Below the pieces are notes generated by a model. It saw only the letters and a list, made by a program, of their open reading frames with translations, did no database searches and had not been told where the DNA came from. Positions 30,187 through 30,575 of a stretch of 64,000 nt of DNA are shown one piece after another. The DNA is from Thermoplasmata archaeon (GTDB lineage: Archaea > Thermoplasmatota > Thermoplasmata > GCA-020350865). Numbering within the stretch: position 1 is the stretch's first letter; every line of letters starts with the position of its first letter. The stretch covers positions 767,216-831,215 of the forward strand of contig CP070751.1 of assembly GCA_020348445.1 (NCBI GenBank). The letters run 5' to 3'. The translations under genes were made by a program, and so were the position numbers.

Positions 30187-30293
30187 GTGTCCAAGCTTAA
30201 GATATAATTATATAATAAGTATAACTTGGACACAGAGCCTTTTTGCGTGTTCGAGCTTAAGACAAAATTGACTTACAATTATAACTCGAACAT
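30187..30293. repeat. Two tandem 47-bp imperfect palindromes (30187-30233, 30247-30293)
   Basis: GTGTCCAAG-CTTAAGA-N17-TATAA-CTTGGACAC and GTGTTCGAG-CTTAAGA-N17-TATAA-CTCGAACAT; 60-bp period. Confidence 0.9.
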
Positions 30294-30336
30294 TAAGGTC
30301 CCGGGCCTCGAATTAAATTAAAAATAAATCTAAGAG

Positions 30337-30540
30337 GGCCGGGACCGAGATTTGAACTCGGGTCGAGGGATGTCTGCGACCTTATGCAATAACATAATTT
30401 CAAAGGCTGAGCATCCGAAGGATGCGAGGAAACCTGGCGTTGCGAAGCAACGCAAGTGCCGTTTACGGCACCGGTTTCCGCCGGCGCTTTTTCAAAGGGC
30501 CGCCACAGTCCCATAGGATACCAGGCTACCCCACCCCGGC
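30337..30540 (-). tRNA. tRNA-His(GUG) with 131-nt intron (30372-30502) at canonical position 37/38
   Basis: The spliced sequence GCCGGGGTGGGGTAGCCTGGTATCCTATGGGACTGTGG|ATCCCTCGACCCGAGTTCAAATCTCGGTCCCGGCC folds as a cloverleaf. BHB present: CTGT/GCAG central helix with 3-nt bulges GGC and ACA. G-1 encoded at 30541, C73 discriminator, no encoded CCA. Confidence 0.95.
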
Positions 30541-30566
30541 CATGGCGCACAAAATATGCCTATGAA

Positions 30567-30575
30567 ATATTTAAG
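30567..30575 (-). promoter_or_regulatory. TATA box of tRNA-His
   Basis: CTTAAATAT on the minus strand about 26 nt upstream of the tRNA, preceded by a purine-rich BRE-like sequence. Confidence 0.55.

Follow-up and report, generated by a model that had tools for sequence, protein, structure and literature searches.

The 64,000 nucleotides considered here ('the window') come from a Thermoplasmata archaeon (GenBank assembly GCA_020348445.1, contig CP070751.1, positions 767,216 to 831,215 of the forward strand), and what concerns us in them is a tRNA-His(GUG) gene interrupted by 131 nt that are rich in hairpins. This insert appears to be a genuine protein-spliced intron of its host tRNA-His, made up for the most part of one copy of a 98-nt module, and we think it probable, while holding the view with some reserve, that this intron core is a mobile hairpin module that has colonised both spliced tRNA introns and intergenic sites of the genus. 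On the best reading of its behaviour the module is duplicated, degenerates and relocates as DNA, its sites being intergenic ones and splice-competent tRNA introns that already existed. The source genome, a single 5.16-Mb contig, is referred to below as G000 and the four other genomes of the same genus as G001 to G004 (one of the genus genomes is CP070739.1, which is labelled Methanomassiliicoccales).

The tRNA-His gene and its predicted splicing

With introns allowed, ARAGORN calls His(gtg) with a 131-nt intron, and a cloverleaf drawn by eye has G-1, an acceptor stem starting with G1-C72, C73, the anticodon GUG at 30504-06 and a standard T-arm and T-loop. The placing of an intron of this length at position 37/38 by the first-pass annotation, which was made from the letters of the window alone, is in this way borne out. 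Removal of the insert leaves a complete tRNA-His cloverleaf, and the orthologous gene of G003 is the same without an intron; in all five genus genomes the locus is syntenic and the exons are conserved. Neither ARAGORN in its default mode nor Rfam at its gathering thresholds calls a tRNA anywhere in the window. The features of the gene, in window coordinates, are these:

30336-30541, minus strand: tRNA-His(GUG) gene including G-1 (30541), from ARAGORN with introns allowed and the cloverleaf by eye
30503-30541, minus strand: 5' exon
30336-30371, minus strand: 3' exon
30372-30502, minus strand: intron of 131 nt at canonical position 37/38, between G37 and A38
30374-30381, minus strand: 3' side of the splice motif, placed by eye and by a constrained fold
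30567-30574, minus strand: TATA-like box, 26-33 nt upstream of G-1 and also found upstream of four orthologues, with a presumed role in transcription

The splice motif is a bulge-helix-bulge in which a central helix of 4 bp would pair nt 32-35 of the tRNA (30505-08) with intron positions 30374-77 (CUGU/GCAG). Two 3-nt bulges lie at the splice sites (GG/C and AC/A, the stroke marking the cut), the 3' bulge consisting of the last two intron bases and A38, and the motif is flanked by the anticodon stem and by a 4-bp inner helix of intron nt 2-5 (30498-30501) with 30378-81. It had been described as intact. A workable motif is indeed present, but a fold that keeps strictly to it (-57.2 kcal/mol) is not the one of minimum energy, since the unconstrained optimum of -65.0 kcal/mol takes the 5' bulge into a 7-bp helix; a fold with the intron's first hairpin, H0, beside the 5' bulge comes to -60.9 kcal/mol, 3.7 better than the strict motif. 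As modelled, the motif is feasible though not the thermodynamic optimum. The intron on its own folds at -54.2 kcal/mol against -38.0 +/- 3.5 for shuffled versions (z = -4.6, with 0 of 200 shuffles as good).

As to the enzymes, G000 encodes one EndA open reading frame (ORF) with two PF01974 (catalytic) repeats, and it encodes the RtcB ligase (a match of 599 bits). The intron RNA has neither C (RUGAUGA) nor D (CUGA) boxes, as had been noticed before, H/ACA boxes are not present in it either, and Rfam 15 used in E-value mode yields no credible small nucleolar RNA or other family at the locus (best E 0.5-1.6).

A module of covarying hairpins

The layout of the module and of what follows it in the tRNA-His intron is:

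30405-30502, minus strand: repeated module of 98 nt, in the order H0, CGGAAAC, H1, H2, 3' strand of the closing helix, H3, CUCAG
30482-30502, minus strand: hairpin H0; its outer stem and triloop vary, its inner stem is CUUU/AAAG, and it has a C-C mismatch
30428-30479, minus strand: closing helix P1 around H1 and H2, formed by 30473-79 and 30428-34
30456-30471, minus strand: hairpin H1, 6 bp with a URAA loop, 100% paired, three of its six pairs changing on both sides
30437-30453, minus strand: hairpin H2, 7 bp with a UUC loop, 100% paired, three of its seven pairs changing on both sides
30411-30425, minus strand: hairpin H3, 6 bp
30378-30406, minus strand: variable 3' tail, holding part of a second H0 at 30398-30406 and also a small AU hairpin and the 3' strand of the inner helix

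The first-pass annotation had the geometry right: the three palindromes (H1, H2 and H3 here), the 7-nt pairing that forms P1, the TTATG/CATAA stem (30382-86 and 30393-97) and a 9-nt direct repeat (30398-30406 and 30490-30498) bracketing 92 nt are all exactly where it had put them. It had spoken of GAA triloops; the palindromes are real, but GAA stands on the strand antisense to the tRNA and the RNA would have UUC.

Across eight module copies 94.6% of the cells are paired and two-sided changes occur in 10 pairs, a level that none of 500 shuffles reaches, and controls in which the structure was slid along give 0-2 such two-sided pairs. P1 is paired in 80% of cells, being weak in the Arg copies, and shows a compensatory C-G to A-U change between G000 and G001. 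The outer stem of H0 has two covarying pairs, and the 5' strand of this hairpin doubles as the inner-helix 5' strand of the splice motif. The stem of H3 is almost invariant in sequence in tRNA-borne copies, the free copies having other, 4-bp, stems instead. Covariance models, a search that had been suggested with the original description, give 109-115 bits at the tRNA-His intron (models R1 and R2) and recover 15-16 members in the five genus genomes, including divergent free copies in which H1, H2 and H3 are of other sequence with the layout unchanged.

Copies in tRNA genes and between genes

A BLAST search of G000 with the intron brings up one further copy (76% identity), which is the 37/38 intron of tRNA-Arg(UCG) (G000:C1:4029909-4030156; L002:1430-1677). 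That gene has two introns in G000, a D-loop insert of ~30 nt and the 37/38 module intron of ~140 nt, and was missed by ARAGORN until both inserts were taken out. A signature scan of G000 brings the copies to four, the His intron, the Arg intron and two intergenic copies that sit between ORFs and have only the module common to their flanks; a larger RNA gene shared around these free copies was considered and dropped on that flank comparison.

The module is present in five of five genus genomes, all four relatives having copies, and turned up in none of 146 other genomes sampled from the class. Further tRNA hosts are His (G001), Thr(UGU) (G001, G002, G003), Thr(CGU) (G001, G003) and Arg(UCG) (G004), and the copies in His, Thr(UGU), Thr(CGU) and Arg(UCG) have 74-94% identity over the module. 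The core is multi-copy, in four tRNA species and in intergenic DNA.

What is the unit that is shared? It is not a whole intron with both of its splice borders. The last 6-10 nt of an intron match the anticodon loop of the host tRNA itself, and the 3' ends and tails are host specific, with the 5' module shared across hosts, which favours entry of modules into existing introns over transposition of whole introns. The Thr(UGU) introns of G002 and G003 have two full modules in tandem, and several other introns have a truncated second H0 after H3. Tandem modules, the truncated second H0 and free copies without the repeat together identify the 9-nt repeat as module periodicity and not target duplication.

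Filled, partly filled and empty alleles

Orthologous sites differ in their contents within the genus. Those of tRNA-His are:

G000: intron of 131 nt, full module
G001: intron of 120 nt, full module
G002: intron of ~50 nt, H0 with CGGAAA and a tail
G003: no intron
G004: intron of ~51 nt, nothing but an H0 hairpin whose loop is large

The G002 intron of 50 nt is exactly of the form of the 'mini-element' (H0 and CGGAAA) considered below. The Thr(UGU) intron of G000 has borders as in G001, with AT-rich filler replacing the core. Thr(CGU) has no intron in G000 and module introns in G001 and G003, and the modules of these two are only 66% identical. That of G001 is closest to the Thr(UGU) type (87%) and that of G003 to a free copy of its own genome (78%), so that different module lineages occupy the same site. 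Short tRNA-His alleles in relatives, and likewise in Thr(UGU) and Thr(CGU), had been anticipated, but the predicted short form of 39 nt does not correspond to the alleles of G002 and G004.

Some observations stand apart from these. Just downstream of tRNA-His (window 30187-30293; orthologous loci L022 and L024) is a twin-hairpin element; in G003 and G004 the final ~15 nt of the tRNA are repeated after it, which resembles an insertion with a duplicated gene end. Outside the window, G000:C1:4640570-4643566 has ~24 tRNA genes in 3 kb; the array, which holds a second, intronless, tRNA-His(GUG) that is AT-rich and unlike the host's, looks like one borne by a virus or other mobile element. The genus relatives have genomes of 2.3-3.7 Mb and other class members of 1-2.6 Mb, against 5.16 Mb for G000, whose marker-based completeness is only 82% despite a closed assembly.

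How might the module move?

Transcription would be from the TATA box, and the anticodon stem, the 4-bp helix of nt 32-35 with the intron 3' end and the two 3-nt bulges would constitute the splice motif, with H0, from intron nt 1-2, either supplying or competing for the helix beside the 5' bulge. The two-repeat EndA would cut, and RtcB would join the exons and probably circularise the intron. The simplest route for modules to enter or leave existing introns would be recombination or gene conversion between H0 repeats, which could yield tandem arrays, the partial second H0 seen as the 9-nt repeat, and alleles that either have or lack the core. An intron may be a safe site for such an insert since splicing removes it. 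As for its origin, the module may be an elaborated form of a mini-element of 35-45 nt (H0, CGGAAA and a GCUUCGC apex) that has a patchy occurrence across many archaeal phyla.

A shared hairpin beyond the genus

The mini-element was sought with a pattern of H0 and CGGAAA only, in one genome per prokaryotic species, and at least 119 loci with at least 122 matches were found. Among the matches listed, all 62 in archaeal assemblies have an outer stem of at least 3 bp, which is not in the pattern; in bacterial assemblies 4 of the ~60 matches listed have such a stem, which is the chance rate. The archaeal hosts among the matches listed include Woesearchaeota, Aenigmarchaeota, Nanoarchaeota, Pacearchaeota, Undinarchaeota, Altiarchaeota and ANME-1, and further Methanosarcinales, Bathyarchaeia, Nitrosotalea, a Thermococcaceae metagenome-assembled genome (MAG) and several Thermoplasmata-labelled MAGs. 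Of the seven matches in viral contigs, only three or four have a proper stem. In a sample of the class a strict motif is found in four of the five genus genomes, in 0 of 396 others, and not at all with a reversed control. To judge from sequence, this patchy distribution suggests horizontal spread. Many of the copies run on into GCUUCGC, the H2 apex, so that UGC-UUC-GCA is at once the apex of H2 and the tail of the mini-element, and it is common to loci L046, L053, L108, L119 and L141. A metagenome scan with a pattern for the H3 palindrome, which is too unspecific, gave at least 119 matches, with no true module among those listed.

The sites occupied are diverse. The mini-element is in tRNA introns at 37/38 (in L072 it is spanned by a 111-nt tRNA that Rfam calls), at T-loop position 59/60 (L094, L077) and apparently in a D-loop (L135), as well as 2-6 nt past tRNA 3' ends, in intergenic DNA and, in the sense orientation, in long ORFs. 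For nine mini-element loci Rfam has only tRNA, 5S and small-subunit rRNA matches, with no family for H0 or for the module. A separate observation is that at L073:5030-5110 and L103:3075-3150 the mini-element begins an insert of ~110 nt, antisense, between two copies of a tRNA gene end.

Its occurrence within protein genes is clearest in IS200-type tnpA of ANME-1 (L046:1700-1800, L053:3830-3920 and L079), where three sites have a mini-element and each has an empty-site homologue. The inserts, of 42, 42 and 39 nt, each replace exactly one codon and the frame is open; one tnpA gene stays open with two of them, and no splice motif was seen at these sites. The mini-element is also sense and in frame in other genes, in L141 (Methanosarcinales), L161 (ANME-1) and L049 (Bathyarchaeia), the hosts of which, as read from their translations only, are a CobN-like C-terminus, a PaREP1-like helix and a membrane protein. 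Across different genes all three of its reading frames are used. By eye there is no convincing bulge-helix-bulge around ORF-borne mini-elements or around free copies. In a check for a triple helix, the lengths of the U-run and of the A-run of the tail in 52 distinct H0 copies among the matches listed gave a rho of 0.19 (p 0.18), and the covarying outer stem of H0 lies between the would-be strands.

Could H0-CGGAAA-GCUUCGC be a pan-archaeal, horizontally moving mini-insertion that makes or seeds protein-spliced introns at the D-loop, 37/38 and T-loop 59/60 and enters genes in frame, the Thermoplasmata module being an elaborated and possibly domesticated descendant that is released as a circular RNA? 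The idea is possible and we put it forward tentatively, inclining, as matters stand, to doubt it.

Selfish repeat or useful RNA?

Several features weigh against the module being mobile. Its copy number is low, 3-6 per genome; all tRNA-borne copies in the genus have the same, sense, orientation and all are at 37/38; and no transposase, terminal inverted repeats or consistent target duplication was found for it. The unpaired segments AAAGCG, CGGAAA and CUCRG are invariant across copies, and G.U and A.C mismatches in the stems are equal, 10 of each, giving no pointer as to which strand folds or whether it does so as RNA or as DNA. Further, between G000 and G001 the His modules have 94% identity where the flanking proteins are only 55% and 76% identical and the 3' tail of the very same intron is unalignable. 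On these sequences the module would be either under constraint or recently homogenised, and its identity, set against the diverged flanks, points to purifying selection, which is no less compatible with a useful RNA than with a selfish repeat.

Such an RNA would be a functional small RNA carried in tRNA introns and in free genes, in the manner of box C/D small RNAs, freed by splicing, probably as a nuclease-resistant circle, and acting either in trans by way of its invariant single-stranded segments or as a protein scaffold. Besides the conservation just described, the stems compensate with the junction sequences fixed, G001 and G002 have retained an orthologous free copy (87% identity), the tRNA-borne copies are all sense, and RtcB is encoded. 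However, the module is dispensable at any one site, being absent from tRNA-His in three of the five species, it has no Rfam match and no C/D or H/ACA boxes, G.U is not in excess over A.C, and the mini-element is found in ORFs and in DNA contexts ill-suited to a small RNA. We regard this alternative as rather unlikely, while recognising that a mobile module and a functional RNA are mutually compatible. There is also the matter of DNA. The loops of H2 and H3 are mostly UUC in RNA, which is GAA on the antisense strand, and the complement of the H2 apex is GCGAAGC. The GCGAAGC DNA hairpin, to which the first-pass annotation had already drawn attention, is very stable, and this keeps alive a reading in which the structure forms in single-stranded DNA.

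A third proposal is that the hairpins aid folding or splicing in cis, H0 pre-forming the helix at the 5' bulge for the two-repeat EndA and the other hairpins preventing mispairing with the tRNA body. In the His and Arg introns H0 begins at nt 1-2, as it does in most of the tRNA-borne mini-elements inspected by eye (L066, L072, L077, L094), and the fold with H0 adjacent has the energetic advantage over the strict motif given above. Against this, the H0 of Thr introns does not start until nt 5, the short introns of this genome lack such hairpins and are spliced, and the free intergenic and ORF-borne copies have no splice site, so that we consider the proposal improbable.

Most improbable of all, in our view, is the version originally proposed, a classical non-autonomous transposon (a miniature inverted-repeat transposable element) that entered an older 39-nt intron with a 9-bp target-site duplication: an exact 9-nt repeat does bracket 92 nt, taking those 92 nt out leaves a foldable 39-nt intron and relatives do have short introns, but the repeat is the conserved 5' half of H0, which starts every module in every host, its second occurrence comes from a partial second module and is missing from free copies and several tRNA copies, there are no terminal inverted repeats, and in G002 and G004 the short alleles differ from the 39-nt form. 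The intron's first 21 nt, taken in that proposal for 'old' intron, belong instead to the repeated unit. What survives of it is the multi-copy core and the short alleles; insertion with target-site duplication does not.

Relation to known systems

Literature searches on the motif, on in-frame palindromic elements in archaea and on mRNA introns brought up nothing matching. Of the phenomena already described, the nearest is that of the transposed tRNA-intron families of Thermoproteales, for which passages in the accounts concerned (Fujishima et al. 2010, via PMC4090602; 10.64898/2026.10.13.758758) describe near-identical introns in different tRNA genes, within and between related genomes. Dependence on a bulge-helix-bulge and an unexplained means of spread are features in common. 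In contrast to those families, what is shared here is a discrete, covarying, multi-hairpin module of 98 nt and not a whole intron, the 3' ends vary with the host tRNA, modules stand in tandem and also free between genes, 37/38 is the position of all genus copies, the organisms are Thermoplasmata with a two-repeat EndA, and the first hairpin is shared across phyla.

The intron of euryarchaeal pre-tRNA-Trp carries a box C/D small RNA, according to a passage in PMC4090602 that cites the work. It is similarly a long euryarchaeal intron with a structured RNA of a kind also found as free genes, but the intron considered here has no C, D, C' or D' boxes, no kink-turn and no guide region. The tRNA-Trp(CCA) gene of G000 (G000:C1:4784167-4784382) has a 142-nt intron with UGA-rich box-like motifs, and possibly this is the usual euryarchaeal C/D guide intron.

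For the mini-element, and for it only, there is a likeness to the Rickettsia palindromic elements, small palindromic repeats that are in frame in protein genes and occur also in RNA genes and intergenic DNA; both are in-frame palindromic repeats that leave frames open. The mini-element differs in being archaeal, far shorter (35-45 nt) and often exactly at tRNA splice sites, and there is no sequence relation. Repetitive extragenic palindromic (REP) and IS200-IS605-type elements have imperfect hairpins with conserved flanking bases, which is again a resemblance, but no associated Y1 transposase was found here and no conserved target tetranucleotide.

Significance

How archaeal tRNA introns move was, in a 2014 review (PMC4090602), put down to a mechanism unknown, and a 2026 census of Asgard introns has no general route for their arrival. 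The locus described offers a tractable system in this regard: within a single genus, orthologous tRNA sites have the recognisable, covarying module in full, in part or not at all, the module exists in tandem and free copies too, and a short conserved hairpin connects it with introns and insertions in many other archaeal phyla. The locus thereby provides a concrete starting point for asking how the tRNA introns of archaea grow and spread. At a more practical level, standard tRNA finders miss genes such as these, which affects the tRNA inventories of metagenome-assembled genomes. And should the pan-archaeal mini-insertion prove to be true, it would be the first sequence-defined vehicle for the gain of tRNA introns by archaea.
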